48,823 nt of DNA from an uncultured Clostridia bacterium. Its GTDB lineage: Bacteria; Bacillota; Clostridia; JAAYHZ01. The translations under genes were made by a program, and so were the position numbers. The stretch lies in the NCBI GenBank assembly GCA_937894465.1, contig CALCRE010000060.1, forward strand, positions 1 through 48,823. The letters are read 5' to 3'. Below, piece by piece: positions 759 to 34,773 of this stretch (position 1 is its first letter; each line of letters opens with the position of its first letter). The notes beneath the pieces are model-generated. The model was given only the letters and a program-made list of their open reading frames with translations. It had not been told where the DNA came from and did no database searches.

Positions 759-840
759 AGAGCTCCTCCTAATGCATGTTAGACAGTACATGTCTAGATT
801 TTACCATAACTAATCTTTCGTTAACAGCAATCAAATAGAA

Positions 841-893
841 AAAGGGGACGCTTCTCAACCTTTTATGCACAAAAGATTGAGAAACGTCCCCTA
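841..893 (-). repeat. about 50-bp near-perfect palindrome (copy 1 of the GGGGACG-N-TTCTCAA / TTGAGAA-N-CGTCCCC element); likely intrinsic terminator for the SBP gene on the minus strand
   Basis: Left arm GGGGACGCTTCTCAA (844-858) and right arm TTGAGAAACGTCCCC (877-891) pair over 16 bp with one mismatch. The loop flanks CTTTT/AAAAG extend the stem. On the minus strand the stem is followed by TTTTTCTATTT. Confidence 0.7.
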
Positions 894-913
894 TCTTAAT
901 TTTTCCCAACTTA

Positions 914-2755
914 TCATTTAACACTCTTGTAATACTTAAATGTCTTTATTTCATCATTATTCCATATTTTAACCCAATCGTCTAAACCGGCATTATAAAG
1001 TTGCTCTATATATTGCTCCCATTCCGTATCGATGTTTGCTATCTGTCCACCCCAAATTCTACCTGTAAAATCATTTATAACAGAGTTAATTTGTGCGATG
1101 GTCTCTTCACGAAGTAATTTAAATTCTTCATATATCTCAGATGGCATAGTGTATTGACTATACAATTTATCCGGTTGAATCCACAAACTATCACCGAACC
1201 AACCATCCGGACTATATACTTCCCAGTACTTTATGAATTGTGTATAGAATGCATCGTAATTAAAATATGCATTCAAATCAGACATAAAATTCAAGTTGCC
1301 GAATTGTCCGAACATTGTTGTTCCTTTTCCGGCATATTTCGGTGGAATCTTTGTGGCATCCGTGAAGATAATGGGACTGTCCAAAGGTTCTGAATGCCAA
1401 GTATAATGCACTCCTTCTATTCCCCATTTATATCGCATCCAATTCTCACCGAAGTAAGCATATTCAACCATTTGGAATATCCTTGCCAGTTTTTCATCCG
1501 GAACATCACCTACCAAATACATCATCGTGCTCCAGTTAAAAGGTTGATGTGGTCGATAATTGCCGTTTTCACCGGCAACGGGTGTTACAACGAATGTAGC
1601 ATCCGGTTCAACACCGTTCAGAATAGCTGCCGGAGGCCATTGATCTCCGTCGTTGTATCCAAGCCCTAATACTCTCGGTGGTCCTAATGTGTCAATAAAT
1701 CCGGTTCTTCCGGTATTCCATATAGCCCTCAATTCCAAATTGTACGCTATTTCTCCAGGTACCCATTTCATATATCCTTTGTCTAGCATCCTCATCAAAA
1801 AGCTTAAATTATCTTTGTATGGTGTATATGCAAAATATGGTACATAGTCGTTCGTCAAAGGATCCTTATAGAAATGGGCTCCGTCTTGGTCGAAACCGAA
1901 CATATTGTATGATATGTACCGATCATATGCGGAATTAGCAAAAGGTGAACCGTATGTATCATCCGCCCCATTACCATCCGGATCATCTTCGGTAAATGCT
2001 CTTAGAATTTCCTCGACTTCACTAATAGTAAACTTTGTAGTTGAAAAATATAACCTATCATTCCATCGTTCAGGGTTCAATGCACTTTCCATAACGACGA
2101 GATTATCAAGTTCATAACCTAAATTCTCCAACCAATCCAATCTCCATATGGGTACCCATCCGGTATGCCTGGACAACGGAGTATACATAGCCAATCCATA
2201 ATATTCATCTTCAGTTCCTTCAACTAAATTAAAACTTAGACCAAGCGGGTCTTCTTGGATTAGTTTATAATAGCTAGGATAGAACTGTTGAATCATTTTT
2301 AACGGCACTGTTCTGCCTAATCCATTGTCAAACATGTATTTCCCGGTGGTGTAATAAAAGCCGTAATCAGGAACATCACCGGCAGCAAGCATCATTTGAA
2401 CTTGCTGCATCTCTGATGAGCTTACAAGAATATTCCACATTCTGATATCAACATTAAATTTCTCTTCTAGCTCTACTTCATCCCATCTTCCATCCTCATA
2501 TAAGTGAGATGAATATGTGCCTACCAACCAATTAATTGTCATTTTCTCAGCAAAGGGATTCTCGATTTTCGTTGTAGTCTCTGGTTGAGTCGTAACTGCT
2601 GTTGTAGTAACTGCTTTTGTTGTGTCGGCTTTTGTTGTTTGGCTTTGTGCCACTGAACCGGTAGTTACACTCTCGTTAACTTCTCTTCCGGAAGAGCATG
2701 CGACCAAAGAAAAGAGAAGTATCAACGATACGAGGATTGAAATAATTCTTAACAT
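914..2755 (-). CDS. large extracellular solute-binding lipoprotein (family-1 SBP, LplA/YtcQ-like), orphan (no adjacent permease genes)
   Basis: Signal peptide with lipobox LVAC followed by a Thr-rich linker (TTKADTTKAVTTTAVTTQPETTT). At 613 aa it matches the large sugar SBPs of Firmicutes. RBS GGGAGGAATAGT precedes the ATG. Confidence 0.75.
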   Translation of the reverse strand: MLRIISILVSLILLFSLVACSSGREVNESVTTGSVAQSQTTKADTTKAVTTTAVTTQPETTTKIENPFAEKMTINWLVGTYSSHLYEDGRWDEVELEEKFNVDIRMWNILVSSSEMQQVQMMLAAGDVPDYGFYYTTGKYMFDNGLGRTVPLKMIQQFYPSYYKLIQEDPLGLSFNLVEGTEDEYYGLAMYTPLSRHTGWVPIWRLDWLENLGYELDNLVVMESALNPERWNDRLYFSTTKFTISEVEEILRAFTEDDPDGNGADDTYGSPFANSAYDRYISYNMFGFDQDGAHFYKDPLTNDYVPYFAYTPYKDNLSFLMRMLDKGYMKWVPGEIAYNLELRAIWNTGRTGFIDTLGPPRVLGLGYNDGDQWPPAAILNGVEPDATFVVTPVAGENGNYRPHQPFNWSTMMYLVGDVPDEKLARIFQMVEYAYFGENWMRYKWGIEGVHYTWHSEPLDSPIIFTDATKIPPKYAGKGTTMFGQFGNLNFMSDLNAYFNYDAFYTQFIKYWEVYSPDGWFGDSLWIQPDKLYSQYTMPSEIYEEFKLLREETIAQINSVINDFTGRIWGGQIANIDTEWEQYIEQLYNAGLDDWVKIWNNDEIKTFKYYKSVK

Positions 2756-2899
2756 ACTATTCCTCCCATATCTTTTTTATCATTTTACATCATTGGTTAA
2801 TTTAAGTAAATAGGGTTATTTGTCCTATCTTAAGATAAATATCTTTTTTTAAATAATCATTTGTTCTTAATCTGTTATTGAGATTGTTCTCGAATTATA

Positions 2900-2952
2900 A
2901 AAGGGGACACATCTCAACTTTTCATATGGAAAAAGTTGAGATGCGTCCCCTT
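2900..2952 (-). repeat. about 50-bp palindrome (copy 2 of the same element); terminator-like on the minus strand downstream of the Zn-ribbon gene
   Basis: Arms GGGGACACATCTCAAC (2903-2918) and GTTGAGATGCGTCCCC (2935-2950) flank a central CATATG. On the minus strand the stem is followed by TTTTATAATT. Confidence 0.7.
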
Positions 2953-2954
2953 TC

Positions 2955-3518
2955 TTACACAACCTTTTTCCCCAATCTTTTTGCTAATTCCATTATGCCG
3001 CTATCAATAACTTCGCTTATAATAAATTGTCGTCTGGCTTCATCTTTAGGATTGTAGAAATTCCTATCTTTGAATTCATAGATTTGGTCAGCATATGCGA
3101 CAGCAATACAGAAATAATTTTCAGTTTCGAGCCATACATTTTGCATCATTTTGTTAATCTCTATGAGTATTGAAGTGGGATCATTAAAATTCCAAGTTTC
3201 CAGATTCACCTTATTAAATTTTGCATGGGTCATAACACCGTCCGCCATAGCATAAACTGCTTGCTTCTTTGATATTGTCAGGTACTTTACTTCCTGTTCT
3301 GTGAAAAAACGTGTCGTATAAATTTCACTTGGATTAAAAAAGTATCCGTCGCCAAATTCATCCGTATGATCAAATGAAAATTCGTCCATAGGTAGTTTTA
3401 CACAGCACTCTGCGCCACATTTTTGACAATAAAAGAATGCACCTAAGTCATCCACAAAAACATTCACTTTTTTATGAAAGTGACCGCAGTCACGACATTC
3501 TTGTTCAATGGTATACAT
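2955..3518 (-). CDS. hypothetical protein with N-terminal CxxC...CxxC zinc ribbon
   Basis: ORF 2955-3524. The likely true start is the ATG at 3516-3518 (MYTIEQECRDCGHF...), with AAAGGAGC 7 nt upstream. Two CxxC pairs sit in the first 45 aa. No recognisable enzymatic motifs. Confidence 0.6.
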   Translation of the reverse strand: MYTIEQECRDCGHFHKKVNVFVDDLGAFFYCQKCGAECCVKLPMDEFSFDHTDEFGDGYFFNPSEIYTTRFFTEQEVKYLTISKKQAVYAMADGVMTHAKFNKVNLETWNFNDPTSILIEINKMMQNVWLETENYFCIAVAYADQIYEFKDRNFYNPKDEARRQFIISEVIDSGIMELAKRLGKKVV

Positions 3519-3601
3519 AAGCAAAGCTCCTTTTATTTATTATCTATTTATATTCCGAAGGAGAACAATATTGTAATCCTCGACAAAAAGAAATTGCTCT
3601 G

Positions 3602-3640
3602 TATTGAAAAAGACTATTTAAACCAAATAGCCTTTTTTAT
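3602..3640. terminator. hairpin AAAAAGACTATTT-AAACC-AAATAGCCTTTTT, probable relic terminator of the truncated SBP paralog
   Basis: 13-bp stem with one mismatch, flanked by T/A runs. It lies just downstream (on the minus strand) of the SBP 3' fragment. Confidence 0.4.
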
Positions 3641-3655
3641 CAATAGCTCATTACT

Positions 3656-3770
3656 CTATACTTTATAATACTCAAATATTTTTATTTCATCGCTATTACA
3701 GAATTCAACCCAATCGCTAAGACCCACTATAAAGTTGTTCGATGTATTGCTATAATTCCGTATTTATATT
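3656..3770 (-). pseudogene. 3'-terminal fragment of a paralogous solute-binding lipoprotein gene (about 33 codons plus stop)
   Basis: 3661-3770 aligns at about 75-80% nt identity with 926-1035, the 3' end of the intact SBP gene. The minus-strand frame reads ...IVGLSDWVEFCNSDEIKIFEYYKV* against the intact ...NAGLDDWVKIWNNDEIKTFKYYKSVK*. Similarity ends abruptly near 3770. Confidence 0.65.
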
Positions 3771-3936
3771 AGAAATTATTTGCTTCTTCGGTAATCCTCG
3801 GTATGATATTGTTTTTAACATCTATATTTGTTACAGTAATATTAAAATACGAAAATCAAATTTTAAATTTCCTACTATTCAATGTTTATTATCTAAAAAG
3901 AAAAGTATGAAATTTATAATTGCAAAGGAGTAGGGT

Positions 3937-5745
3937 ATGAAATATCAGGAATTAGGTTATCCTTGCAGGAACTTCTGTGTCATGGCATCGGAGACTTTTT
4001 TAGACCCACTGGACAATCGGCGTAAATTTGCAATATCCAGTTTTGTCGCAAGCGGTACCGGGATCATTGTTATTATTGATATTGAATCCGGGCAAGGTGA
4101 AAGAATCGAACTGCCAAAAGATGAAGGCGCTTGGGCTTTGTATTGTTGGAACAATGAAAAGCTATTAATCGGAACCTGTTCAAGATACGGTTTTCTTCAT
4201 TGTTTGGATCTTAAGACAAGAACATGGTCGCCGTCATTAAGAGATGAAAAAGAAACCTATATTTGGAATTTGGTTGAAGGTTCCGACGGAAAAATCTATG
4301 GAGGAACTTATCCCGGAGGCGTTTTGCTTCGGTACGATCCTGTGGGACACAAACTCGAGAATATGGGTAGAATGTCACCTGATGAAAAAAACAACTACAC
4401 CCGACCTTTATATAACGGGGTTGACGGCAGAATATTTTTAACATCCGGATATAACAGCACCCATATGGTTTCATGGGATATCGAAAAGGAAAAATATATG
4501 AAGTTCGGACACGACGGCTGTATGGTCAAAGAAGCCAATCAACACTTTGTATGCGGTATCAATGAAAAGACCAAGGAATTAACTTTTTATCATCCTTATA
4601 CTCTTGAGCAAATTGAAGATGCCGTTCAATATGAATCCATTGATTTGACATGTATAAAGAATCCAGCCATAAAAGAATATTTGAAATCCTTCAAATTGAC
4701 CAGAGAACATGGAGGTCCTAATGTACGAAAACCAAAATGGGATGACGGTACAGTAAAATGCGGCACAGCAGGTCAAAGCTACTATATAGAGCAACCGGAT
4801 GGATCTCGCCAATACAAACGAATTCCCGTAGAAGCTCCCCCCACTGCCATTTTAGGTCTTGCCTATGACGGTAAAGGAAAGATTTGGGGATCCAGCGGGT
4901 TCGGTCAAACTATTTTTTCATACGATACACAAACCGGAGAATATTTTAATACCATAGAAGTGGCCAATGCCGGTGGTGAAGTATATGGTATTTGCCCTGT
5001 AGAAGATCGACTATATCTCACCAGTTATTGCGGAGGAGAACATACGGTATATTATCCGAACATGCCATGGAACAAAGGAGAAAATCCAAAAACCATTGAA
5101 GAGTTGCGTCCTCGATATATTCGACCACATAGTAAAAGTGTGATCGGTGCCGATGGTTATGTGTGGACAGGTTGGTGGGCAGATTATGGTACTTACGGCG
5201 GTGCAATCAGTAAAATTGATGTACAAACAGATCAAGTCACCATTTATGAAAGTCCCGTACCGGATCAAGGTATCGAATCCATTGTCGCCGGAACAAATGG
5301 TATTATATTTTCTACAACCGGACACGGAAACGGCCTTCCGAGCAGAAATATTCCTTTGTGGCTAGTAAAGATGAATTATACGGGAGAAACCTTATGGAAA
5401 AAAGAATATGACGTCAAATATGGAATCGGACCGATGGCTATAGTCGGTGATTATTTATTTGTAAGACTAGGAAGTGAATTTGCAGTGTTTGATACGGTTG
5501 ATATGAGTCAAGTCACAACCCTTACATATCCGATTACAAACAAAGGTCGTCCTTTGACCGGACTACTAGCATATAATCATGAGACTTTGGTGGTATTTCA
5601 TTGTCAAGAAGCCTTGTTTGTGAAGGTTCCTGAGTTTACGATCTCAAAAAAGGTTGAAACAGGCAGTGATATTCATTATGCAATCACAGGTGACCATCAA
5701 CAGATTTATTTTGCAAAAGGATCCTTGCTGTGTAAGTTAGGATAA
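3937..5745 (+). CDS. cytoplasmic beta-propeller repeat protein (Reg_prop/NHL-like repeats), function unknown
   Basis: 602 aa with no signal peptide. Repeated DG-K/R-I-Y/W-xxT-xxGG-xL-xYD modules (for example DGKIYGGTYPGGVLLRYDP, KGKIWGSSGFGQTIFSYDTQT, DGYVWTGWW). RBS AAGGAG 6 nt upstream. Confidence 0.65.
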   Translation: MKYQELGYPCRNFCVMASETFLDPLDNRRKFAISSFVASGTGIIVIIDIESGQGERIELPKDEGAWALYCWNNEKLLIGTCSRYGFLHCLDLKTRTWSPSLRDEKETYIWNLVEGSDGKIYGGTYPGGVLLRYDPVGHKLENMGRMSPDEKNNYTRPLYNGVDGRIFLTSGYNSTHMVSWDIEKEKYMKFGHDGCMVKEANQHFVCGINEKTKELTFYHPYTLEQIEDAVQYESIDLTCIKNPAIKEYLKSFKLTREHGGPNVRKPKWDDGTVKCGTAGQSYYIEQPDGSRQYKRIPVEAPPTAILGLAYDGKGKIWGSSGFGQTIFSYDTQTGEYFNTIEVANAGGEVYGICPVEDRLYLTSYCGGEHTVYYPNMPWNKGENPKTIEELRPRYIRPHSKSVIGADGYVWTGWWADYGTYGGAISKIDVQTDQVTIYESPVPDQGIESIVAGTNGIIFSTTGHGNGLPSRNIPLWLVKMNYTGETLWKKEYDVKYGIGPMAIVGDYLFVRLGSEFAVFDTVDMSQVTTLTYPITNKGRPLTGLLAYNHETLVVFHCQEALFVKVPEFTISKKVETGSDIHYAITGDHQQIYFAKGSLLCKLG

Positions 5746-5767
5746 TCTTTTTTATAGAAAAACATTT

Positions 5768-5792
5768 AAGCGACACAAAAATTGTGTCGCTT
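5768..5792. terminator. bidirectional intrinsic terminator between convergent genes
   Basis: AAGCGACAC-aaaaatt-GTGTCGCTT followed by TTATTTTG on plus, with a T-rich tract on minus. Confidence 0.75.
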
Positions 5793-7166
5793 TTATTTTG
5801 CTTGCCCCGATTTGTACCCGGCCAAAGAAAAGAATATACCGATAAAACATACTATCGTCATGATTAAAAAGGTGAGTTTAACGGCTGATAGCAGTTCTAG
5901 GGAATGGCTAACCTTGATTTGACCGGCACCGATATAAGCGGTTAAAATTGAGGTTGCCAATCCCATACTCAATGTTTGGCCTATGGTACGTGCAGATCCT
6001 AAAATTCCGGAAGCCGTGCCGTAATATCGGTTTTCCACTGAACTCATAATGGCATTTGTATTCGGTGAAGTAAAAAATGCAAATCCCAGACCGATCACCA
6101 ACAAAGCAAATATAACGGTAACAACACTCGTAACGGGACTTAAAAAGATGAAGAACGAAAGACCTAGCGTAGTAACAGCCATTCCAACAGAGGCAATCTT
6201 TTGGGGATGCATTTTGTCCGATAGCATTCCGGTAATCGGAGATAATAAAGCCATAATAATAGGTTGTGCCATCAACACTAGACCTGCTTGAGCAGGATTA
6301 TAACCTTCTAATATCTGTAAATATAAGCTGATTAAAAAACTGATGGCAAAAGTTGCACAATAATTGATCAATGCTGCAAGACAAGAAAAAGAGAGTGTTT
6401 TGTTTTCTTTTAACAATCGAATATCCAATACTGGATACAGAACCTTTTTTTCAACTTTGACGAATAAGAAAGCAGACAAAACACCAAACGCGATCAACAA
6501 CCATCCATATCCGGTGCTTATAAATGAAAATCCTGCAACAATTCCTAAAACGGAAAAACCGAAAATGATAGAGCCTGCATAATCGACTTTTTCGTCCTTT
6601 GTTACCATCCATTCCTCTTTCACTGTTAATAATAATACAAAGGCCAAAAGAACGACACACGCAATGAAAATAAAGATGCTTCTCCAACCTAAATGCTTTG
6701 TCAATAAACCTCCTAAATAAGGACCGGAGGAAAGCCCCACATATGTCATTGCAACATTCAACCCTAAAGCTTTTCCTCTTTGACCTGCAGGATAAACACA
6801 AGTCAATATTGAAACAACAGTAACGGTAACGGTAGCGCTGCTTATTCCTTGCAGTATTCTACCTGATATCAGCAATAGAGCATTACCGGAGATACCGCAT
6901 AAGAAAGACGCGAGGGTAAACACAAATAATCCTATGAGAAGGAGTTTTTTTCTTCCGATGAGATCCGCTAGCTTACCAAAGGGAAGAACAAAGATTGCCA
7001 TAGAAAGTGTGTACGATAGGACCACCCAATTCAGTAATACGGAGTTCATGGGTAAATCACTATTGATTGCAGGCAGAGCGATGTTTACCGACGATGTCAT
7101 GAAAGGTATGATAAATGCCCCTAGGCTTGTTACGATCAGTATGATCTTTTTATACTTATTATGCAT
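5793..7166 (-). CDS. MFS transporter, DHA2 (EmrB/QacA-like 14-TMS) drug efflux family
   Basis: 457 aa, highly hydrophobic, with MFS motifs (GKLADLIGRKK, multiple TM segments). Confidence 0.8.
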   Translation of the reverse strand: MHNKYKKIILIVTSLGAFIIPFMTSSVNIALPAINSDLPMNSVLLNWVVLSYTLSMAIFVLPFGKLADLIGRKKLLLIGLFVFTLASFLCGISGNALLLISGRILQGISSATVTVTVVSILTCVYPAGQRGKALGLNVAMTYVGLSSGPYLGGLLTKHLGWRSIFIFIACVVLLAFVLLLTVKEEWMVTKDEKVDYAGSIIFGFSVLGIVAGFSFISTGYGWLLIAFGVLSAFLFVKVEKKVLYPVLDIRLLKENKTLSFSCLAALINYCATFAISFLISLYLQILEGYNPAQAGLVLMAQPIIMALLSPITGMLSDKMHPQKIASVGMAVTTLGLSFFIFLSPVTSVVTVIFALLVIGLGFAFFTSPNTNAIMSSVENRYYGTASGILGSARTIGQTLSMGLATSILTAYIGAGQIKVSHSLELLSAVKLTFLIMTIVCFIGIFFSLAGYKSGQAK

Positions 7167-7176
7167 AAACCACCTT

Positions 7177-7644
7177 TTAGGATAAAGTCTTTACCATGAT
7201 CAAACAAGGATTTTGTTCATTCCAAATTTCTTTAAATTCATCCAATGGGAAAAAACCAACGTTCCTATAAAAAGCTCTTGTTCTTGCATAGTAAAGATCA
7301 TCGCTGGAGTCACCTACTGTTTTCACCATAAAAAATTTATATTCATTTTTCGTTAGATATTCTTCCGCGGCCCCTATCAGCATACAACCGATACCCTGTC
7401 TGTGAAATTCCTCTAATATCCCCACCAAAAACAGTTCAGCAGTAAAGGGATTAACATGTCGAAGACAAATAAACCCTATAACCTTCCCATGAAAAATTGC
7501 AGCATAAAAAATTTTGTCTCTTACATCCTTCATATATTCTTGAATTGATGACTCAATTCCAAACCAATTCGGAAGTTTGTGCAAGATCTCATCCGTAATG
7601 TTCATCTTTTGCGTTTCATCAATAATTTCAATGATATCAATCAT
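7177..7644 (-). CDS. GNAT family N-acetyltransferase
   Basis: 155 aa with acetyl-CoA binding motif HRQGIGCML. It ends 10 nt upstream of the MFS gene, so a likely operon. Confidence 0.8.
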   Translation of the reverse strand: MIDIIEIIDETQKMNITDEILHKLPNWFGIESSIQEYMKDVRDKIFYAAIFHGKVIGFICLRHVNPFTAELFLVGILEEFHRQGIGCMLIGAAEEYLTKNEYKFFMVKTVGDSSDDLYYARTRAFYRNVGFFPLDEFKEIWNEQNPCLIMVKTLS

Positions 7645-7775
7645 GTATCCACCTCACTGAGCGTTGTAACTGCTTTTTCATATTGTAGCATAAATAAAAT
7701 CCTGTTCCTGAACTATCTCGTATTCATGTAACAATGTTAACATAACCGTAATATAATGTATATGAAAAGGAATTA

Positions 7776-8483
7776 ATGGAGATTAAAATGAATTACATAC
7801 ATTATAACGGCGGCTGCCCCGCTGGTTTTATCTCATATACCATACAACCCGGTGACACTTTATATGAACTTGCACAACGTTTCAATGTTACCGTCAATGA
7901 TATTATAGCCGCAAATCCCGGATTGTTACCGGAAAGCTTACAAGTGGCCCGTATAATATGTATCCCTAGAAGTGATTCAGATCCGGCATGCCCGACTTCA
8001 AATTTCTATGTGATCCAAAATCAAGATACTTTGTCGGCCATTGCAAAAGCATTTCAAATATCGATAAAAAGTATAGTAGATGTCAATCCGGGCATCGTCC
8101 CTGAATCTCTTCGGATCGGGCAAATGATTTGCTTGCCCTTGTCACCTTTACCATATTTGCTTACCATCAGCTTGAATGCGAAAACATTGTCTTTTTATCG
8201 ACAGGGTATATTTGTCAAAACTTATCCGGTTGCCATCGGAAAACCTTCTACACCCAGTCCCCAAGGCACATTTACCATTGTAAACAAAGTATTTAATCCC
8301 GGTGGACCCTACGGTACACGTTGGATGGGCCTATCAGCCAGGGGATACGGCATTCACGGTACAAACAATCCTATATCGATTGGAACGAGAGCATCGAACG
8401 GATGTATCCGGATGTATAATCAGGACGTTAACGAATTGTATTCACAAGTACTTGTAGGAACTACCGTAAAGATCTATAAATGA
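7776..8483 (+). CDS. L,D-transpeptidase (YkuD-type catalytic domain) with two N-terminal LysM domains
   Basis: Two LysM repeats (YTIQPGDTLYELAQRF..., YVIQNQDTLSAIAKAF...) and a C-terminal YkuD motif GIHGTNNP...SNGCIRM. Confidence 0.85.
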   Translation: MEIKMNYIHYNGGCPAGFISYTIQPGDTLYELAQRFNVTVNDIIAANPGLLPESLQVARIICIPRSDSDPACPTSNFYVIQNQDTLSAIAKAFQISIKSIVDVNPGIVPESLRIGQMICLPLSPLPYLLTISLNAKTLSFYRQGIFVKTYPVAIGKPSTPSPQGTFTIVNKVFNPGGPYGTRWMGLSARGYGIHGTNNPISIGTRASNGCIRMYNQDVNELYSQVLVGTTVKIYK

Positions 8484-8561: not shown

Positions 8562-9281
8562 TCAAATTCTAAAGCCGATTGTTAACTGCATTTTAAAGAT
8601 TGTTCTAAAAGTGTTATCACTTGAAGAGATCACTGTCTTATCATTTTCAACATCTTCTGTTTCACATTCTAATGCCGCTGCCTGCAATTTTTGTTCTTCC
8701 ACATTGATCATATGTGTTAAGACCGCTTCCGTCAAGGCTATGGATTCTGTTGATTCAGGAACGTTATTACTCAATAATGACAATTCTGCATAAATGAATC
8801 CGCAAAAAACCGATGTGATAACATTCGTCTCGGTTTTTAATACCATTTTTATAGGATCTGTCCATAGTTTTTTATTCATCTTAAAACAGATACTGATCCG
8901 ATCCTGGATATAGTTACCGCCAATAACATCATCACCGTATGGTGTATCATCAAACGACAAAGAAATACATTCGGAACGGGGCTGCGTTTCCATAAAAGCA
9001 CAGAGGTCCGAAAACACCATGGTGACCGGGGCATTCCCAATATCTTCTTGATCCATATAGGTTATTTTCATTGAACAATCGGTGATATCCAAATCCGTTA
9101 TATCCGTGCAGAAATTCATGTGTATATGACCGATTTCCCTTTTGTTAGAATTCATATGAGAGCGTTGAATTGTATACTGGAATTCCGAAGTTTTTTCTCT
9201 GTTTGAAAGAACAGGTTTCAAAACAGATATGTTCCAACCGTTTTCCGCATCAACTTCGCTGCAAACTTTATTCTTTGACAT
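8562..9281 (-). CDS. hypothetical protein (239 aa), no recognisable family
   Basis: ORF track gives 8562-9347. A better start is the ATG at 9279-9281 (MSKNKVCSEV...), with AAGGAGGTG 6 nt upstream. Confidence 0.6.
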   Translation of the reverse strand: MSKNKVCSEVDAENGWNISVLKPVLSNREKTSEFQYTIQRSHMNSNKREIGHIHMNFCTDITDLDITDCSMKITYMDQEDIGNAPVTMVFSDLCAFMETQPRSECISLSFDDTPYGDDVIGGNYIQDRISICFKMNKKLWTDPIKMVLKTETNVITSVFCGFIYAELSLLSNNVPESTESIALTEAVLTHMINVEEQKLQAAALECETEDVENDKTVISSSDNTFRTIFKMQLTIGFRI

Positions 9282-9379
9282 ATTAGCACCTCCTTGTCTT
9301 GTATAGTGGCGATACAAATGATCTATACAATATATTCCCTTGCACATAATCGGTGCTTTTGTTTGATTTAATAAAATGA

Positions 9380-9408
9380 TTGAGAACCGTCCCCGCTCAT
9401 ATTATAAT
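9380..9408 (+). promoter_or_regulatory. sigma-A-type promoter for the ABC exporter operon; its -35 is supplied by copy 3 of the TTGAGAACCGTCCCC element
   Basis: TTGAGA (9380-9385), a 17-bp spacer, then TATAAT (9403-9408). The ATG at 9441 is preceded by GAGGGA. Confidence 0.6.
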
Positions 9409-9440
9409 ACATTTAACGCTTTAATGAGGGAATTAAATTT

Positions 9441-11159
9441 ATGAGTATATATGGTAAGTATTTTAGAAAATACAAATATCCGTTCTTGGTAGCGGTTTTG
9501 TGTGTTGCTTTAGAAGGGGTATGCGATTTACTCGGCCCTACTTTGATGTCCAACATCATCAACAAGGGAATAGAGAAACAAATGATGTCCGAAGTTTATC
9601 GTTGGGGTGGATTGATGTTGCTAGTGACTCTATTTGGTGCATTTTTCGCAGTGACCAGGAATATTTTCGCCAGCAAAACCTCTCAAAGAATGGGAGCTGA
9701 TTTACGATATGATTTGTTCAAAAAAATCATTAGTTTTTCAGAAGAAGGATCTGATAAGATAGAAAGCGGATCATTAATTACACGAATGACCAATGATACC
9801 GCTCAAGTCATTCAATTTGTGAACGGGATCATGCGTATTTTTTTAAAAGCTCCGATCACCTGTATAGGAAGTATAATCTTCGCGAGTATTCTAAATTTTC
9901 GCCTAAGTTTAATCATTTATGGAGTAGTGGCGGCGGTAGCCGTTCTCATCACCATCAGCATGAAGCTAAGTTACCCTAGGTTTTCCAAGCTACAAGCAGC
10001 AAGGGATAAAATGAATATTGTTGTGCAAGAATATCTTATTGGTGTTCGAGTAGTAAAAGCTTTCGGTACATATAAAGAAGAGACGGAAAAGTTTCATGAT
10101 ACGAATGACTCATTAATGAAAAGAAGTGTATCATCTCAAATGGTTATCACTCTTATTTCTCCCATTATTAATCTAACCGTAGGTATAGGAACTGTCGCAG
10201 TCGTTTATCTCGGTAGTATTCTGTTTCCAATGCAACTTGCCGAACCCGGAGATATCACCGCATTTATTATTTATATGGCACAAATTCTTTCCTCTTTGAT
10301 TATGATCACCAATGTATTCAATGTATTCGTTCGAACCAAGGCTTCCACTGCACGTATTAAAGAAGTATTGGACAGTTCCGAAGACTTTTCAGAAACAGGC
10401 GAAAAGAAAAAAATTACCGGTGACATTGAGTTTCGAAATGTTACTTTTGCCTACCCCGCTGGTAGCGGTGTCCCGGCTGTTAGAAACCTTTCTTTAGTGA
10501 TTGAGCACGGCCAAAACCTTGCCATCATCGGACCGACCGGAAGTGGGAAATCTACCGTTGCATGGCTTTTATTACGGTTTTACGATGTGGACAACGGTCA
10601 GATTTTGATCAACGGTCAAGATATCCGTCAATTGAATGTAAAATCTTTACGAAATCAAATTGCCTTGGTACCGCAAAACCCAATGCTCTTTTCCGGAACC
10701 ATTTCCGAGAACATCAAATGGGGAGATAAACAAGCAACAAACGACTCCATCGATCAAGTTGTAAAAAAGGCTGAAGCCGGTTTCATTTATAACATGCCAA
10801 ACCAATACGACAGTATACTAGGAAGTTCCGGTGTCAATATTTCGGGTGGGCAAAAGCAACGGATCTCCATTGCACGGGGATTAATCAAAGACTCCCCCAT
10901 TCTAATTTTAGATGATGCAACAAGCGCTCTTGATGCCGTCACCGAATCCAAAGTCCGACAAAACTTAAAATCAGATCAAATGGAACGAACGGTTATCACA
11001 ATCACACAGCGTATCGGTACAGCCATGTCATCTGATAAGATCCTTGTAATGGATAACGGCAATAGTGTCGGTTTCGGAACCCACGATGAACTGATGAAAG
11101 AATGCCCGATGTATAAAGATATTTACAAATTACAAATAGAAGGCAGCAAGGAGGCGTGA
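9441..11159 (+). CDS. ABC transporter ATP-binding/permease (type I exporter half-transporter), subunit 1 of a heterodimer
   Basis: N-terminal 6-TMS domain plus NBD with Walker A GPTGSGKST, signature ISGGQKQRISIARGL and Walker B ILILDDATSALD. Confidence 0.9.
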   Translation: MSIYGKYFRKYKYPFLVAVLCVALEGVCDLLGPTLMSNIINKGIEKQMMSEVYRWGGLMLLVTLFGAFFAVTRNIFASKTSQRMGADLRYDLFKKIISFSEEGSDKIESGSLITRMTNDTAQVIQFVNGIMRIFLKAPITCIGSIIFASILNFRLSLIIYGVVAAVAVLITISMKLSYPRFSKLQAARDKMNIVVQEYLIGVRVVKAFGTYKEETEKFHDTNDSLMKRSVSSQMVITLISPIINLTVGIGTVAVVYLGSILFPMQLAEPGDITAFIIYMAQILSSLIMITNVFNVFVRTKASTARIKEVLDSSEDFSETGEKKKITGDIEFRNVTFAYPAGSGVPAVRNLSLVIEHGQNLAIIGPTGSGKSTVAWLLLRFYDVDNGQILINGQDIRQLNVKSLRNQIALVPQNPMLFSGTISENIKWGDKQATNDSIDQVVKKAEAGFIYNMPNQYDSILGSSGVNISGGQKQRISIARGLIKDSPILILDDATSALDAVTESKVRQNLKSDQMERTVITITQRIGTAMSSDKILVMDNGNSVGFGTHDELMKECPMYKDIYKLQIEGSKEA

Positions 11160-11160
11160 T

Positions 11161-13020
11161 ATGGCCCAACAACAACCAAGACAAGATACAAAGGTTCCGT
11201 CATTAAGCAACAGGCCGGCTGGTGGAGGTGCAGGTCGTTTTGCACCGAATGCAAAACCTAAAAACGCAAAGGGAACACTTTTAAGAATTATAAAGATATA
11301 CATGCAATGGGGTAAAACTATATTAGTCGCTATGTTGCTTACGGCCATTGCATCCGGTATTGCCGTAAGTATACCCTACTTTACCGGTAAAACATTTAAT
11401 ACCTTTGATTTACAAACACGTACTGTAAATATTGATGACCTTCTTCGCTTTTTATTAATCCTATTGTCACTTCATGTGTGTTCTTTGACCATCTCATGGA
11501 TCAACGGGATCATTATGCTAAAGGTGTCTCAGAAATTAGTGTTCACGATACGTAATGAAGTGTTTTCCAAAATGCAAAAGCTTCCCTTACAGTTTTATGA
11601 TACCCGCTCACATGGAGATACCATGAGTAGAATCACCAATGACGTGGATAATATTAGCTCCACCATCGCACAAACCACAACTCAATTAGTGTCCAGTATA
11701 CTGACTTTAGCTGGATCATTGATTGTGATGATTTCATTGAGTATTCCTCTCACACTGATTGTTTTATTGGTAATTCCCCTTGTTGCATTGTTAACGAAAT
11801 CCATCGCATCGAAAAGCCGTGCATATTTTAGAGCGCAGTCTAAAAGTTTGGGGGAATTAAACGGTGTAATTGAAGAGAATATCCAAGGACTAAAGATGGT
11901 AAAAGCTTTTGGAAAGCAACAAGATATGCTTAATCAATTTAACGGCATTAACGAACAATTATATGACAACAGTAAAAAAGCTATGATATGGTCCGGATAT
12001 ATGATGCCATTAATGAATGTAATCAATAATTTTGTATTTGCTTTGGTTTCCATCATTGGCGGTATATTGACCATAGAGCAAGGCTTAGTGATTGGCACGG
12101 TAGTTAGCTTTTTAAGTTATTCCAAGCAATTTGCTTTTCCTTTAAATGCTATTGCCGGTATGTTTAACACCATACAATCTGCTTTAGCAGGTGCCGAACG
12201 TGTTTTTGAGTTGTTCGACAGTAAAGAAGAACCTTCTGATCTTCAAGATGCCATTGATATAAAGAACCCAAAAGGGTACGTAGTATTTGATGATGTAAGC
12301 TTTTCCTATAAAATCAATCCTGTCTTAAAAAATATATCATTCCATGTCAATGCAGGTGAGGTGATTGCATTAGTGGGTGAAACCGGTGCAGGTAAGACAA
12401 CCGTAGTGAACTTGTTGACACGATTTTATGATGCGGATAGCGGAGTGATACATATAGACGGAATCCCTATTCATGATATAAAAAGAAACAGTTTGAGAAA
12501 ATGTTTCTCGGTTGTTTTACAAGACACATCACTATTTAGTGGAACGATTTTGGAGAACATCCGCTATTCTCAGCCTGATGCGACAGAACAACAGGTGATC
12601 AAAGCAGCTAAAATAGCGCATGCACATGATTTTATCGACAAGCTTCCTAATGGATATCATACCATGGTTTCCGGATCTACCGACAACTTAAGCCAAGGAC
12701 AGCGCCAGCTCATATCCATCGCACGAGCAGTTTTAAGTGAAAGTCCTATATTGATCTTAGATGAAGCCACCAGCAGTGTTGATACCAAAACCGAGAAGGA
12801 TATCCAAAAAGCTTTGTTAGGATTGATGAAAAATCGTACCAGCTTCCTTATCGCCCACCGATTATCCACCATCAGAGATGCAAATCACATTATGGTGATC
12901 GGTAATGGCTCCATATTAGAAAGAGGAAACCATAAAACCTTGATGCAACATAAAGGTCATTATTATGAAATGGTGACAAGTCAAACTCAGATTAGGGACA
13001 GTTCTCAACAAATTTTATAA
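11161..13020 (+). CDS. ABC transporter ATP-binding/permease, subunit 2 of a heterodimeric exporter, with a basic low-complexity N-terminal extension
   Basis: Walker A GETGAGKTT, signature LSQGQRQLISIARAV, Walker B ILILDEATSSVD. Its start overlaps the upstream stop (TGATATG), indicating translational coupling. Confidence 0.9.
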   Translation: MAQQQPRQDTKVPSLSNRPAGGGAGRFAPNAKPKNAKGTLLRIIKIYMQWGKTILVAMLLTAIASGIAVSIPYFTGKTFNTFDLQTRTVNIDDLLRFLLILLSLHVCSLTISWINGIIMLKVSQKLVFTIRNEVFSKMQKLPLQFYDTRSHGDTMSRITNDVDNISSTIAQTTTQLVSSILTLAGSLIVMISLSIPLTLIVLLVIPLVALLTKSIASKSRAYFRAQSKSLGELNGVIEENIQGLKMVKAFGKQQDMLNQFNGINEQLYDNSKKAMIWSGYMMPLMNVINNFVFALVSIIGGILTIEQGLVIGTVVSFLSYSKQFAFPLNAIAGMFNTIQSALAGAERVFELFDSKEEPSDLQDAIDIKNPKGYVVFDDVSFSYKINPVLKNISFHVNAGEVIALVGETGAGKTTVVNLLTRFYDADSGVIHIDGIPIHDIKRNSLRKCFSVVLQDTSLFSGTILENIRYSQPDATEQQVIKAAKIAHAHDFIDKLPNGYHTMVSGSTDNLSQGQRQLISIARAVLSESPILILDEATSSVDTKTEKDIQKALLGLMKNRTSFLIAHRLSTIRDANHIMVIGNGSILERGNHKTLMQHKGHYYEMVTSQTQIRDSSQQIL

Positions 13021-13033
13021 CAAATATTAAAAA

Positions 13034-13066
13034 GAAAACCGGTTTTACTTTGATAAAACCGGTTTC
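13034..13066. terminator. bidirectional intrinsic terminator
   Basis: GAAAACCGGTTTT-actttgat-AAAACCGGTTTC, a 12-bp stem between convergent genes. Confidence 0.65.
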
Positions 13067-13107
13067 ATTAACTTAACAGATATGCCCATATGCTTTTTTC
13101 TATCTGA

Positions 13108-14418
13108 TTACAAGCGCCATATAAAGGATGCCTGTTTCGAAAAACGATTCAGTAAATCGGATATCTTAAATTCCCTGCAATCATTCATGTAAGTGTGTAC
13201 TTTGTCGTTAAAACCGGCATACCAGTGTTCCGGTAGTTTTTCAAAGCCTGAAAGAGCACCTGCAATGCTACCTGCCGTAGCTCCATTACAATCATTGTCT
13301 AAGCCCATTGCAACGGTTTGGGATAAAACTTTTGTCAAATCATCTCTGCCTATCATTAAACCGAATATTGTCAGGACAGCATTATTAACAGTATGTACTC
13401 CGCTCATACCTTGATACCTATTATCAACAATTTCCCGGGCTTGGCGATAATCGTGTACATTTTTACCTTCCTGGATCGCCCAAGCAATCTCTTTTGCCAA
13501 TGTGCAATTCTCCGGTATTTCCGTCAATCCGATTCTTAACGCTTCCTCTAAATCGTCGGTTGTAAAAGCAGCTGAAATAACTGCCGCAAAATACATAGCA
13601 CCATAAATACCTGTCCTTCTATGGCTGAGCATAGCATCAGTCCAAGCCATTTGCGCAGCCTTCTCCGGCCATCCCGGTGCCATATATCCCCAAGGATCCG
13701 AGCGTATATATGCACCGATCCACAACTGATAGGGGTTATCCTTTTCCCCACATTGATCTGCCGGTATACCCTTCTTTAAATTCTTTAATGCTATATCCTC
13801 GGCGGTATAAGCAACAGGAAGATATTTCACCCATGCTTGTCCAACATTTTCAACTGTAAAGTCCGTACCGTATTGTTCGGCAATCAATAATCCTAAAATA
13901 GTGTATGTTATATCGTCATCTACCGGAACACCGTCCATTTGGTAGCGTAAATATTCTTTTCTTTTGCTGACGCCATAACGTACAGTATCAGGATCCGGTA
14001 TATCCGTCCAATAATCGGTGGGTGGAAATGGTTGATTACATTCTTTAGACCATTCTTCCATTTTTGATATGGGCCATGCCTCAACGATTGCCCCTAATGT
14101 ACAACCTGCCATTCGAGCTAAAAAAGAGCCTTTCAATTTGTCCATATAGATTTCTTCTTTGAAATCATGCCAAATCTTTCTCGGTCCGTCCGGTCGAAGC
14201 TTTTTAATGTCATCTAAAGAATTCGGTTCATTAAAAACCGAATCGGATTCTTCCGGTAGATTATTCACATAATTAATACATGATTTCAATGTATCCTCTA
14301 TTTGTATTAGAGCATGATCAATTCCTATCCCGCCGTTTTCAACTTTCCTCTTTGTGTATAGCTCTAGCTTTCTAAATAGATTCCATATTACATCTGTGTT
14401 TGGATATTTCATTTTCAT
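13108..14418 (-). CDS. ADP-ribosylglycohydrolase (ARH/DraG-like) family protein with an approximately 90-aa N-terminal extension
   Basis: ARH-like motifs GCTLGAIVEAW and MGLDNDCNGATAGSIAGALSG. An alternative start ATG at 14410-14412 is preceded by AAGGGGGA. Confidence 0.7.
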   Translation of the reverse strand: MKMKYPNTDVIWNLFRKLELYTKRKVENGGIGIDHALIQIEDTLKSCINYVNNLPEESDSVFNEPNSLDDIKKLRPDGPRKIWHDFKEEIYMDKLKGSFLARMAGCTLGAIVEAWPISKMEEWSKECNQPFPPTDYWTDIPDPDTVRYGVSKRKEYLRYQMDGVPVDDDITYTILGLLIAEQYGTDFTVENVGQAWVKYLPVAYTAEDIALKNLKKGIPADQCGEKDNPYQLWIGAYIRSDPWGYMAPGWPEKAAQMAWTDAMLSHRRTGIYGAMYFAAVISAAFTTDDLEEALRIGLTEIPENCTLAKEIAWAIQEGKNVHDYRQAREIVDNRYQGMSGVHTVNNAVLTIFGLMIGRDDLTKVLSQTVAMGLDNDCNGATAGSIAGALSGFEKLPEHWYAGFNDKVHTYMNDCREFKISDLLNRFSKQASFIWRL

Positions 14419-14445
14419 CCCCCTTTATGGGTGTTTTTTAACTTT

Positions 14446-14838
14446 TTAACCTTTTATGATTTTTACAAAAATGCTCCTGCTTCTTGGACCATCAAATTCA
14501 CAAAAATATATACCTTGCCATGTGCCTAACATCAGACTTCCGTTTTCAATGATCACTGTGCACGATGAACCGGTCAATGTAGCCTTGAGATGCGCATGAG
14601 AATTCCCTTCCATGTGTAGATATTGACCTTTCACGGGATATGTTTGATTCAAACCGGAAATGATATCTGTGATCACATCAGGATCGGCATCCTCATTAAT
14701 CGTTACTCCGGCGGTAGTATGCGGTACAAACACCATAACAATTCCATCTTTGATTCCTGTTTCCGTCACTGCTTTTTTAACAATGGATGTAATATCATAA
14801 AAGTCCTGATTTTTTATTGTCCTAATATGATATATCAT
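14446..14838 (-). CDS. YjbQ/UPF0047 family protein (secondary thiamine-phosphate synthase-like)
   Basis: 130 aa with the conserved HMEGNSHAHLKATL region. It overlaps the upstream M24 gene by 4 nt. Confidence 0.8.
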   Translation of the reverse strand: MIYHIRTIKNQDFYDITSIVKKAVTETGIKDGIVMVFVPHTTAGVTINEDADPDVITDIISGLNQTYPVKGQYLHMEGNSHAHLKATLTGSSCTVIIENGSLMLGTWQGIYFCEFDGPRSRSIFVKIIKG

Positions 14839-16010
14839 ATTGATTTGTCTCCTAAGAATAAACTGTTCATTTTCTCACTAAAAGGAACAGAACCTTTTTC
14901 AGTGATTAAATAAGCTGTTTCGATACGAACTCCGTTGAAATCCGGATGTCCGAAAAAGCTGACATCAACGCAAACCGTCATACCCGGAACCAGCAAATCT
15001 GTACTATTTGGACCAAAGAAGGGAGCTTCGGCTTCCATGATACCGGTGGTATGTGCAAACGGGCAAACTAAATAAGGAAGATAACCGATTTTATCAAAAT
15101 ATGCTCTTGCAGGCGCATCGATTTCTTTACCGATTTTTCCCGGGACCAATTGCCGTTTGGTTAAGTACAAAGCTTCTTTCATATGTTTAATACATTCCTT
15201 TTGCTGTGGTGTATATTCTCCGGATACAGGTAACGTATCTCCGAAAACTCCGCTATACCCCTTCCATCTCGGAGAGATCCCCAGCATTACCATTTCTCCG
15301 TTTTCCATCACTTTATCCATGGCAGTAGGCACAACAGCATTGGACCTTTTTCCGCTACCTACAATAGTCTTGAAAGCAAACCCGTTTGCACCGAGAGCAC
15401 GTGCTGCCGCTTCTCCTGCCGCTGCAACCTCAAATTCTGCAGCACCGGGTTTTATTTTTTCAATCATAGCATCGTACGCAACATCTGCTAATCGAAAGGC
15501 TTGTTTCATCTGTTCAATTTCCCATTTGCTTTTTACATAACGAAGCCTTAGAAACTCATCGGTGATATCAACAAGCTCAACACCCTTAAAATTTTCTGCA
15601 ACTTCTTTATATACGGAAACCGGCATCTGAGCTGCACCCACCATACCTATTCTTTTTACAGGCTTTCCTTCGCTGATTTCATTAAATAGCTCTGTAAAAT
15701 TAATTATGGTTGCATTTGGATATTCTTCATCCGGAACCATAAAAACAGGGAGATTTCGGGTTTCGCGGATGGCACTATCTTGTTTTGCGAAAGGTTCACT
15801 TTCGGGACCGCCAAGAATGATAGGTGCTCCATCTTTAGGTACCAAAACAGCCCCGCTTTCAAATTGAGGACACCAAGCGGTCAAATACCAACCGTTTGCA
15901 ATATTGAATTCATCGTAATAGATAAAAGCAAAGTCAAGTCGGTTCTTTTCAAGAATGTTTTTTACCTTCAATATTCTGTCGCTGTGTTCTTTAGATTCAT
16001 AATAAACCAT
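14835..16010 (-). CDS. M24 family metallopeptidase (Xaa-Pro aminopeptidase/creatinase-like)
   Basis: 391 aa with N-terminal creatinase-like and C-terminal pita-bread domains (HTTGIMEAEAPF, metal ligands). It begins a 3-gene operon with YjbQ and ARH. Confidence 0.8.
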   Translation of the reverse strand: MVYYESKEHSDRILKVKNILEKNRLDFAFIYYDEFNIANGWYLTAWCPQFESGAVLVPKDGAPIILGGPESEPFAKQDSAIRETRNLPVFMVPDEEYPNATIINFTELFNEISEGKPVKRIGMVGAAQMPVSVYKEVAENFKGVELVDITDEFLRLRYVKSKWEIEQMKQAFRLADVAYDAMIEKIKPGAAEFEVAAAGEAAARALGANGFAFKTIVGSGKRSNAVVPTAMDKVMENGEMVMLGISPRWKGYSGVFGDTLPVSGEYTPQQKECIKHMKEALYLTKRQLVPGKIGKEIDAPARAYFDKIGYLPYLVCPFAHTTGIMEAEAPFFGPNSTDLLVPGMTVCVDVSFFGHPDFNGVRIETAYLITEKGSVPFSEKMNSLFLGDKSI

Positions 16011-16107
16011 AACGCACCTCCAAATAAATACATTTCATTCTAATCGCTCATATAAATACCAATTTATATCTAATATATCGTTTATGTTTTCATTAGTCAA
16101 ATAGAAT

Positions 16108-16153
16108 TAAATGAAAATGAAGAAGCCGGCTTTGATAAACATAAAACCGGCTT
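16108..16153 (-). terminator. intrinsic terminator downstream of the aaRS gene
   Basis: Minus-strand AAGCCGG...CCGGCTT 7-bp stem followed by CTTCATTTTCATTT. Confidence 0.5.
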
Positions 16154-16189
16154 TGAAAATCTTGTCTGCATTTAACTTTGAACAAAAAG

Positions 16190-16204
16190 TTGAGAACCGT
16201 CCCC
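16190..16204 (+). repeat. copy 4 of the TTGAGAACCGTCCCC motif (half-site, directly after the aaRS stop)
   Basis: Exact 15-mer. On the minus strand it reads GGGGACGGTTCTCAAC followed by TTTTTG. Confidence 0.8.
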
Positions 16205-16205
16205 T

Positions 16206-17531: not shown

Positions 17532-17873
17532 AAAATTATAATCCTCCTAATCTAGATTCTTTGACAAAAATTGTATTTCCAAAATCTTTAAAGAGGAGGT
17601 CTGTCCCGGCATCATCTATATGCCGCATTATCATCACATCCTTTTATAAATAAAAAAGTCACATAGATATTAAAACCTATGCGACATGATTGTTCAAGTA
17701 ATACATGGAATCAGCAGAAGAAAAGGCGCACAGGCATGTGTAATCAAAGCACTTGTACCTGTGACAACTTTGTCAAGGACAAGTGCTAACGATCATCATC
17801 TGTTCTTTTATAACAGTACCTGTTCATCTAAAAAATCCCATCATTTAAAATATTAATTTAGCGGTATTATATA
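17532..17873 (-). promoter_or_regulatory. 342-nt structured 5' leader of the aaRS gene with an internal intrinsic terminator and a 32-codon uORF; not a canonical T-box
   Basis: Possible promoter TTGCGC-17-TATAAT at the upstream end. Nested hairpins (AGCACTTGT...ACAAGTGCT enclosing TGACAA-agt-TTGTCA). Terminator GTCGCATAGG-loop-CTATGTGAC plus TTTTTTATTT about 140 nt before the ATG. uORF MIMRHIDDAGTDLLFKDFGNTIFVKESRLGGL ends 5 nt before the aaRS ATG. Confidence 0.5.
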
Positions 17874-22996: not shown

Positions 22997-23011
22997 TTGA
23001 GAACCGTCCCC
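22997..23011 (+). repeat. copy 5 of the TTGAGAACCGTCCCC motif
   Basis: Exact 15-mer, 6 nt downstream of the oxidoreductase stop on the minus strand. It overlaps a small CGGTT-gag-AACCG hairpin. Confidence 0.8.
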
Positions 23012-34758: not shown

Positions 34759-34773
34759 TTGAGAAGCGTCCCC
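34759..34773 (+). repeat. copy 6 of the motif (TTGAGAAGCGTCCCC), preceded by a partial direct repeat AGTTGAGAA
   Basis: 15-mer lying between the NUDIX stop and the secA-like start. Confidence 0.8.

Follow-up and report, generated by a model that had tools for sequence, protein, structure and literature searches.

A short transposon-end repeat may supply the −35 hexamer of a predicted ABC exporter promoter in an uncultured Clostridia bacterium

Insertion sequences such as IS1, IS2, IS257/IS431, IS256, and ISAba1 can form hybrid promoters, in which an outward-facing −35 hexamer in the terminal repeat is combined with a −10 hexamer in flanking DNA and drives the adjacent gene. The Correia/NEMIS elements of Neisseria and other MITEs, which are DDE-type elements of 100–150 bp, can carry promoter hexamers at their ends and give RNA hairpins or terminators when complete. 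NEMIS elements are listed among the MITEs by Di Nocera et al., 2013 (PMC3733652), who also described TIRtrons, RAYT-like genes located between terminal inverted repeats (TIRs). The motif GGGGWSAS is common to some of these TIRs, and some belong to families of moderate abundance that comprise singles, dimers, and clusters (PMC3733652); Firmicutes are absent from the main text of that paper. Quentin et al., 2018 defined subclass 2.1 of the TnpA-Y1 transposases by the motifs NHVH, FQ/W[EQ], and Y[IV]xxNP together with a C-terminal HTH_23, HTH_28, or DnaA_C-like region, equated this subclass with the Group 1 RAYTs of Bertels and the TIRYTs of Di Nocera, and found no REP-like sequences for it (PMC6006769). 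Group 1 is the most widespread RAYT group, present in 21 classes including Clostridia, and its flanking 16-mers have ~12 occurrences per replicon (Bertels et al., 2017; PMC5581495).

The window analyzed here comprises 48,823 nt from an uncultured Clostridia bacterium (GenBank assembly GCA_937894465.1, contig CALCRE010000060.1, positions 1–48,823, forward strand). It contains a 15-base repeat, TTGAGAAnCGTCCCC, at 7 loci in 48.8 kb, or one locus per ~7 kb. A search of the window for TTGAGAACCGTCCCCG with three or fewer mismatches gave 8 matches compared to 0.18 expected, and none of 100 shuffles reached 8. Placed in one orientation, nine arms share the sequence AAAAnG-TTGAGAAnCGTCCCC-(TTT), and their similarity ends at CCCC. 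The arms occur as inverted doublets and as solo copies, as follows.

841–901, minus strand: inverted doublet forming a terminator-like hairpin after the gene at 914–2755; 20-bp stem plus T-tail, −21.3 kcal/mol, z −8.2
2900–2953, minus strand: inverted doublet forming a terminator-like hairpin after the gene at 2955–3524; −24 kcal/mol, z −10
9370–9394, plus strand: solo arm, consisting of the A-rich inner flank AATAAAATGA and the core TTGAGAACCGTCCCC; its outer end, CCCC (9394), faces the ABC operon
12994–13008, minus strand: degenerate arm TTGAGAACTGTCCCT in the last codons of ABC2, encoding RDSSQQ of the tail TQIRDSSQQIL*
16190–16204, plus strand: solo arm that follows the stop codon of a class II aminoacyl-tRNA synthetase gene (16206–17531, minus strand) at a distance of 1 nt
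22997–23011, plus strand: solo arm that follows the stop codon of an oxidoreductase gene (23017–24111, minus strand) at a distance of 5 nt
34759–34773, plus strand: solo arm that follows the stop codon of a NUDIX gene (34790–35236, minus strand) at a distance of 16 nt; a partial tandem duplication, GTTGAGAATTTAG, lies immediately upstream of the arm

The 9380 arm matches those at 16190 and 22997 at 15 of 15 nt, and its A-rich inner flank is common to all nine arms. As the preliminary description of this DNA had claimed, it is the only copy that is not downstream of a gene: it alone sits in a gap between two 5′ gene ends, whereas the others lie 1–16 nt after stop codons, within the 3′ end of ABC2, or in doublets after minus-strand genes. 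The three plus-strand arms at 9380, 16190, and 22997 are consecutive and are spaced by 6810 and 6807 nt, which is probably a coincidence.

The two doublets fold to hairpins of 20–23 bp that are followed by T-runs and stand directly after minus-strand genes, and both (841–901 and 2900–2953) thus have the form of intrinsic terminators. No significant fold was found for the solo arm at 9380 (−1.9 kcal/mol, z −0.5), and none of the five solo arms has a decayed partner arm within 120 nt. We considered the 9380 copy as an intrinsic terminator and rejected this assignment, because it forms no hairpin and does not follow the end of a gene on either strand. Loci L123, L124, L065, and L080 clearly have a unit hairpin whose loop holds the core; at 9380 the corresponding pairing spans only 4 bp (ATGA/TCAT) and is not significant.

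The arms resemble the REP and REPIN sequences that accompany Group 2 and Group 3 RAYTs in Enterobacteria and Pseudomonas in being short, extragenic, and mostly placed immediately downstream of genes, in forming long hairpins as inverted doublets (two doublets, z −8 and −10) but not as singlets (five solo arms), and in being linked to a single-copy Y1 transposase flanked by repeats, as we discuss below. However, the foot of the hairpin here lacks GT[AG]G, neither GTAG nor GTGG stands beside the arms, a single arm is not a palindrome, and the core is constant between phyla whereas REP sequences are species-specific. With the tetranucleotide absent and single arms unfolded, these repeats are not canonical GTAG REPs of Groups 2 and 3. 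The CGTC-tagged REPs, which are found mainly in Alphaproteobacteria, have 8–9-bp stems starting with AT, 4–5-nt loops, a CCA tail, and no transposase (PMC3733652). Our arms share the CGTC tetranucleotide with them as well as head-to-head dimers downstream of genes, but we rejected this identity, as the stem, loop, tail, and transposase features do not fit the published description (PMC3733652).

A second small repeat is present in the window at 13035–13066 and 16122–16154, where self-complementary 12-mers resembling AAAACCGGTTTT occur in pairs ~20 nt apart (6 matches compared to 0.73 expected). Each pair is 27–36 nt away from an arm, on the inner side of the latter, and these pairs may belong to a larger composite element or to terminators.

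The gene upstream of the ABC operon is divergent, and the operon promoter must therefore sit in the 159-nt gap between the two genes. Direct reading of the promoter region gives ...aataaaatgaTTGAGAaccgtccccgctcatatTATAATacatttaacgctttaatGAGGGAattaaatttATG. The gap and the genes on either side of it contain the following features in addition to the arm.

8562–9281, minus strand: divergent hypothetical gene, 239 aa, with the ribosome-binding site AAGGAGGTG; start at 9281, not 9347
9380–9385, plus strand: predicted −35 hexamer TTGAGA, a 5/6 match to TTGACA, inside the arm
9403–9408, plus strand: predicted −10 hexamer TATAAT, a 6/6 match, 17 nt after the −35 hexamer and 8 nt outside the arm
9426–9431, plus strand: Shine-Dalgarno sequence GAGGGA, with the ATG at 9441 being 9 nt further on
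9441–13020, plus strand: ABC exporter operon of two half-transporters (9441–11159 and 11161–13020), with Pfam ABC_membrane and ABC_tran matches in both

The preliminary description had proposed that TTGAGA, 17 bp of spacer, and a perfect TATAAT precede an ABC exporter operon by about 30 nt. Sequence reading and a consensus scan bore out the hexamers and their spacing, Pfam identified both membrane and ATPase regions in the two genes as listed, and the −10 hexamer ends 32 nt from the ATG (32–33 nt depending on the count), with GAGGGA in between. TTGAGA-17-TATAAT matches 11 of 12 consensus positions and was the top-ranked site between 8 and 11 kb. Its hexamers keep the separation expected of a sigma-70/sigma-A promoter (16–18 nt) and precede a gene that is read in the same direction, and transcription is predicted to start near 9415.

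How much weight should such a match carry? Over the whole window, two sites of 11/12 or better were seen compared to 2.4 expected from block shuffles; these sites thus occur at the chance rate, and the case for a promoter rests on position. TTGAGA-17-TATAAT is the sole intergenic site of this quality in the window, and from the shuffle rate we put the probability that a match this good falls in this gap and on this strand at ~0.003–0.01. Its distance to the gene, 33 nt, falls among those of five other well-placed candidate promoters in the window (19–62 nt). Based upon these features, 9380–9408 most likely acts as the sigma-A-type promoter from which the ABC exporter operon is transcribed, and it would be of the hybrid kind. 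The solo arm would contribute TTGAGA and the A-rich stretch just upstream of it, whereas ordinary flanking DNA would contribute TATAAT, 8 nt beyond the outer end of the arm (CCCC, 9394), and RNA polymerase starting near 9415 would produce a leader of ~25 nt that holds GAGGGA. The proposal that a true copy of the repeat supplies the −35 hexamer to a flanking TATAAT therefore stands as the best sigma-A-type candidate for this operon, and we infer activity from its sequence and placement.

Positional coincidence offers an alternative account, in which transcription of the operon would begin at another point of the gap, driven by a weaker sigma-A site or with another sigma factor, and the arm would be inert and only by accident 17 nt from an AT-rich hexamer. 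In favor of this account, good sites in the window occur at the chance rate; intergenic DNA in the window is 33% GC, and TATAAT is 4 times commoner there than overall; and the other arms show no association with −10 boxes either in the window, where only one of nine arms (9380) has a −10-like hexamer at 16–18 nt, or in other genomes. Coincidence fits less well with the content of the gap itself, where all other plus-strand candidates score 9/12 or lower, with a spacing to the ribosome-binding site and ATG like that seen at the window's other likely promoters, and with the chance of ~0.017 that an exact TATAAT would stand exactly 17 nt after any of the nine arms. We regard coincidence as unlikely.

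The divergent gene bears on the same stretch of DNA. The mechanical open reading frame at 8562–9347 (261 aa) overstates this gene; the start with the strong ribosome-binding site, at 9281, gives 239 aa, the gene is called at this length in the same-species contigs too, and the 239-aa protein has no Pfam match. The gap contains a single minus-strand candidate promoter, TTCCCT-17-TATTAT (8/12), whose −10 hexamer (9409–9404) overlaps the plus-strand −10 and whose predicted start lies ~3 nt before the arm. The preliminary description had suggested that the arm would also form the 5′ UTR of the divergent gene, and the position of this start agrees with that suggestion, but the promoter matches only 8 of 12 positions and has a poor −35 hexamer; a 5′ UTR role is thus possible but weakly supported.

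In a stronger version, the arm would serve mainly the divergent gene: minus-strand transcripts would start at ~9397, the arm (as GGGGACGGTTCTCAA) would be the extreme 5′ end of the mRNA, and the back-to-back promoters would compete for RNA polymerase. In keeping with this version, the sole minus-strand candidate is located just upstream of the arm, there is none between the arm and the gene, and all other solo copies have the arm on the sense strand as GGGGACGG... The low score of TTCCCT-17-TATTAT argues against it, however, as does the lack of any significant fold by which the arm could stabilize an RNA end, and a minus-strand start would in any case be compatible with a plus-strand promoter. 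We consider it quite improbable that the divergent gene is the main beneficiary of the arm.

If 9380–9408 is a hybrid promoter of the ABC operon, as we favor, it has parallels in the hybrid promoters of insertion sequences. Similarity among the arms ends at 9394 and the −10 hexamer begins at 9403, and this geometry, with the −35 hexamer in the element and the −10 hexamer outside, gives the site the look of a promoter formed at an element edge. As in the insertion-sequence cases, a −35-like hexamer stands a few bases inside the end of the element with a flanking −10 hexamer at 16–18 nt; unlike them, the donor here is a solo arm of 15–25 nt instead of a complete insertion sequence, and the promoter is predicted from sequence. 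Arrival of the arm through activity of the element would have supplied the −35 hexamer or replaced an earlier one. The Correia/NEMIS elements are likewise small non-autonomous repeats that give promoter hexamers and hairpins or terminators, but the repeats described here belong to Y1 HUH instead of DDE-type elements, are 15–60 bp instead of 100–150 bp, and differ in sequence.

In the comparison with relatives that the preliminary description had proposed, the gap proved identical within the species, no allele that lacks the element was found, and the upstream regions of the nearest homologues outside the species were unrelated. Apart from its own 90% cluster, ABC1 has no homologue above 72% identity; an exact look-up of the window's own ABC1 protein gave no record. 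The ABC gene pair is kept in homologous loci, including those of two 72% homologues whose neighborhoods are not syntenic with the window. These homologues have promoters of their own, such as TTGACC-17-TAGAAT in L122, and their promoter regions lack the core.

Four same-species contigs were obtained through the 90% cluster and two more (L133 and L148) through a metagenome scan; the six are 98.9–99.9% identical to the window, and one comes from the NCBI metagenome-assembled genome GCA_003504795.1, named 'Clostridiales bacterium'. Every same-species contig that spans the gap has the same sequence there, arm included. An empty-site allele would read ...AATAAAATGA joined directly to GCTCATATTATAAT, or would have another junction, and no empty-site or pre-insertion allele is present among the same-species contigs that cover the gap. 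The strains are nearly clonal, as all but 1–2 substitutions per strain fall in one tract of ~700 nt in ABC1, and the identity of the gap thus shows fixation of the arm and not selection for it.

Several features of these contigs are recorded here for completeness. At window positions 9572–10268, L126, L127, and L128 differ from the window by 23–24 substitutions, mostly at third codon positions, with a lone outlier at 8231; the rest of the 2–4.8 kb compared is identical, and the 9572–10268 block looks like a recombination tract. Apparent indels in L129 are runs of N in the scaffold. L148, from a fermentation metagenome, is 99.8% identical to the window over 12582–17860 and additionally contains 5.1 kb (positions 1–5122) that match nothing in the window; the breakpoint at window position 17860, where there is no arm, reflects either a strain-level structural variant or a mis-assembly.

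The other end of the operon also contains repeat sequence. The tail of ABC2 (TQIRDSSQQIL*, window 12994–13020) differs from that of its homologues after ...YYEMVTSQ, where theirs continue MGKLPE... Because RDSSQQ is encoded by the degenerate inverted arm, the gene seems to have taken up an arm at its 3′ end. The operon is bracketed by the arms at 9380 (plus strand) and 12994 (minus strand), both with their outer CCCC/GGGG ends toward the operon.

Beyond the species, 27–28 arms from other genomes showed no enrichment of −10 boxes at 16–18 nt. As arms elsewhere are not preferentially followed by −10 hexamers, the predicted promoter at 9380 would be an isolated case instead of something inherent in the element, which carries a potential −35 hexamer without being a portable promoter.

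What kind of element does the repeat belong to? The preliminary description had likened it to REP and MITE insertions. This analogy has to be corrected: instead of a REP or MITE confined to one lineage, the repeat is a TIRYT-type terminal repeat with a core that is invariant across phyla. From comparative sequence evidence we conclude with high confidence that, for the repeat family, the core GGGGACGGTTC is the terminal inverted repeat of the Y1 HUH transposases variously called RAYT Group 1, TnpA-Y1 subclass 2.1, or TIRYT, and multiple observations support this assignment.

First, a scan for TTGAGAANCGTCCCC (14 specified bases) in one genome per species returned at least 120 loci. About two-thirds of the matches listed are chance matches inside coding sequence, but in ~40 of the 130 matches listed another core lies close by, in inverted (GGGGACGGTTCTC...GAGAACCGTCCCC) or tandem orientation. 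Among the matches listed, these paired or arrayed cores come from Bacillota, Bacteroidota, Actinomycetota, Spirochaetota, Planctomycetota, and a CPR bacterium, with examples in Prevotella and Bacteroidales, in the actinomycetotes Micropruina and Propionicimonas (67–72% GC), and in Treponemataceae. A core of 11–13 nt (GGGGACGGTTC[TC]) is identical in at least six phyla.

Second, cores adjoin Y1 genes. In Oribacterium sp. NK2B42 (L036), six perfect hairpins occur in 8 kb, and two of them bracket a 263-aa open reading frame with the motifs HVHLLL, GHLFQDRF, and FRYILQNP. The encoded protein matches Pfam Y1_Tnp (E 2.4e-16), with weak matches to HTH_3, HTH_23, and HTH_28; its best NCBIfam match is the REP-associated tyrosine transposase, at 54 bits, below the cut-off of 80. 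Relatives of this protein also adjoin cores in L113, L095, L102, L022, and L088, giving six loci with L036, and inverted cores stand on both sides of the Y1 gene in L036, L113, L095, and L102. A metagenome scan with the window's own arm flavor, GTTGAGAANCGTCCCCTTT, revealed one more arrangement of cores flanking a Y1 gene (L150).

Third, as the first Y1 loci had all been found through the core, we ran a test in which loci were selected by protein only. Three homologues were taken from a protein search, and their loci (L123, L124, and L125) were fetched by protein alone. In 3 of 3 cases, exact 11-mers were present no more than 160 nt from either end of the gene, with GGGG pointing outward (GGGGACGGTTC ... 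gene ... GAACCGTCCCC), compared to an estimated chance expectation of ~2e-4 per flank.

Finally, eight Y1 proteins contain invariant N-H-x-H, GxLFQxR, and Y...NP motifs and a C-terminal GLSxRQIxRLTG helix-turn-helix, in agreement with the protein signature of subclass 2.1, in which the first motif may be NHVH or NH[YF]H (PMC6006769). For the repeat family, the loci described above show the inverted repeats flanking a Y1 HUH gene that characterize TIRYTs; tblastn detected no Y1 homologue in the 48.8-kb window, and there was none in the same-species contigs compared.

These proteins and their DNA resemble TIRYT/subclass 2.1/Group 1 systems in the NHVH, FQ, and Y..NP motifs and the C-terminal helix-turn-helix, in flanking inverted repeats that start GGGG(W)(S), in the dispersal of the repeats as singles, dimers, and clusters, and in a wide but patchy distribution that includes Clostridia. 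Compared with the TIRYT motif GGGGWSAS, which is common to 'some' TIRs, the core GGGGACGG fits at 7 of 8 positions (G for A at position 7). Compared with the ~12 occurrences per replicon noted for Group 1 (PMC5581495), the 7 loci within this 48.8-kb window represent a much higher local density. Neither the cross-phylum identity of an 11–13-nt core nor such a high density is stated in PMC3733652, PMC6006769, or PMC5581495.

The same proteins raise the question of whether the arm could act as an operator, to which a Y1 transposase or its C-terminal helix-turn-helix would bind over the −35 hexamer and spacer, thereby regulating the ABC promoter. Invariance of the core across phyla points to a strongly constrained protein–DNA contact, the helix-turn-helix is conserved in all of the Y1 proteins, and the core spans the −35 hexamer and half of the spacer. 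Y1 enzymes work on single-stranded hairpins, however (PMC6006769); moreover, no Y1 gene was seen in the 48.8-kb window, and the overlap with a promoter concerns only one of nine arms. An operator function is therefore a slim prospect.

Other searches were negative or gave unrelated matches. A PDB sequence search with the Y1 protein gave no match at E ≤0.01. Rfam identified no known RNA family in the whole window at gathering scores or in 780–3000 at E ≤10, with matches only to generic miRNA-precursor hairpins, and a full-text literature search for the exact core returned only an unrelated C. elegans paper. DNA-uptake sequences, CRISPR repeats, iterons, dif/Xer sites, ECF promoters, and rRNA or tmRNA complementarity were dropped by inspection and then by the association with Y1 genes.

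Cores occur in further settings in other genomes. In L079 (Prevotella sp. tf2-5, 5190–7800) and L032 (391–4760), the core lies inside ~30-nt inverted repeats (GAAAATTTGGGGACGGTTCTCAATGATCCA) that flank segments of ~120 nt; these segments contain a Bacteroidetes −7-like box (TAccTTTG) and are present in many copies per 8 kb, a layout that is MITE-like or invertible-promoter-like. In L063 (Candidatus Gottesmanbacteria), four cores at 23, 2465, 2486, and 4942 include one tandem pair. The same upstream sequence precedes three of them (45 nt at two, with the third at the locus edge), and these three are spaced by ~2.4 kb, marking a repeated unit. Tandem arrays of cores with a 20–44-nt period and genome-specific spacers are found in L025 (7398–7813), L091 (14–227), L003 (3723–3813), and L028 (105–229), and those in L025 surround an apparent truncated Y1 C-terminus (...RQIERLTGISRS...).

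The repeat also leaves its mark on assemblies. L128 begins exactly at an arm (its position 1 is window position 9379), as does L133 (its position 1 is window position 2936); since independent metagenome contigs end at arms, the repeat breaks short-read assemblies. Many Y1 homologues stand on contigs of ~1 kb, probably for the same reason.

A bolder view would join these observations. Group 1 RAYTs/TIRYTs would keep true REPIN-like populations in Clostridia by means of the invariant core GGGGACGGTTC(TC), and their arms would be co-opted as regulatory parts of the host. One locus per ~7 kb, if extrapolated, would amount to hundreds of copies per genome; paired arms would serve as terminators and the solo arm as a −35/UP part of the ABC promoter, which the conserved helix-turn-helix of the transposase could bind and possibly control. 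If true, this view would contradict both the restriction of REPINs to Group 2 and Group 3 RAYTs and the lack of REP-like partners for subclass 2.1. Taken as a whole, it is doubtful.

Less speculatively, the analysis provides a testable predicted promoter for the heterodimeric ABC exporter of an uncultured Clostridiales species, and an example in which a very short fragment of a transposon end may be reused as a promoter part, which would be an ordinary case of mobile-element reuse. By its sequence, the repeat is of a known but thinly described kind, TIRYT/Group 1. No other RAYT group is as large or as widespread as Group 1/subclass 2.1, yet the DNA partners of this group have barely been described; a single core, GGGGACGGTTC, ties Group 1 genes to dispersed singles, doublets, and arrays in many phyla and thus gives a handle for finding and counting these elements.
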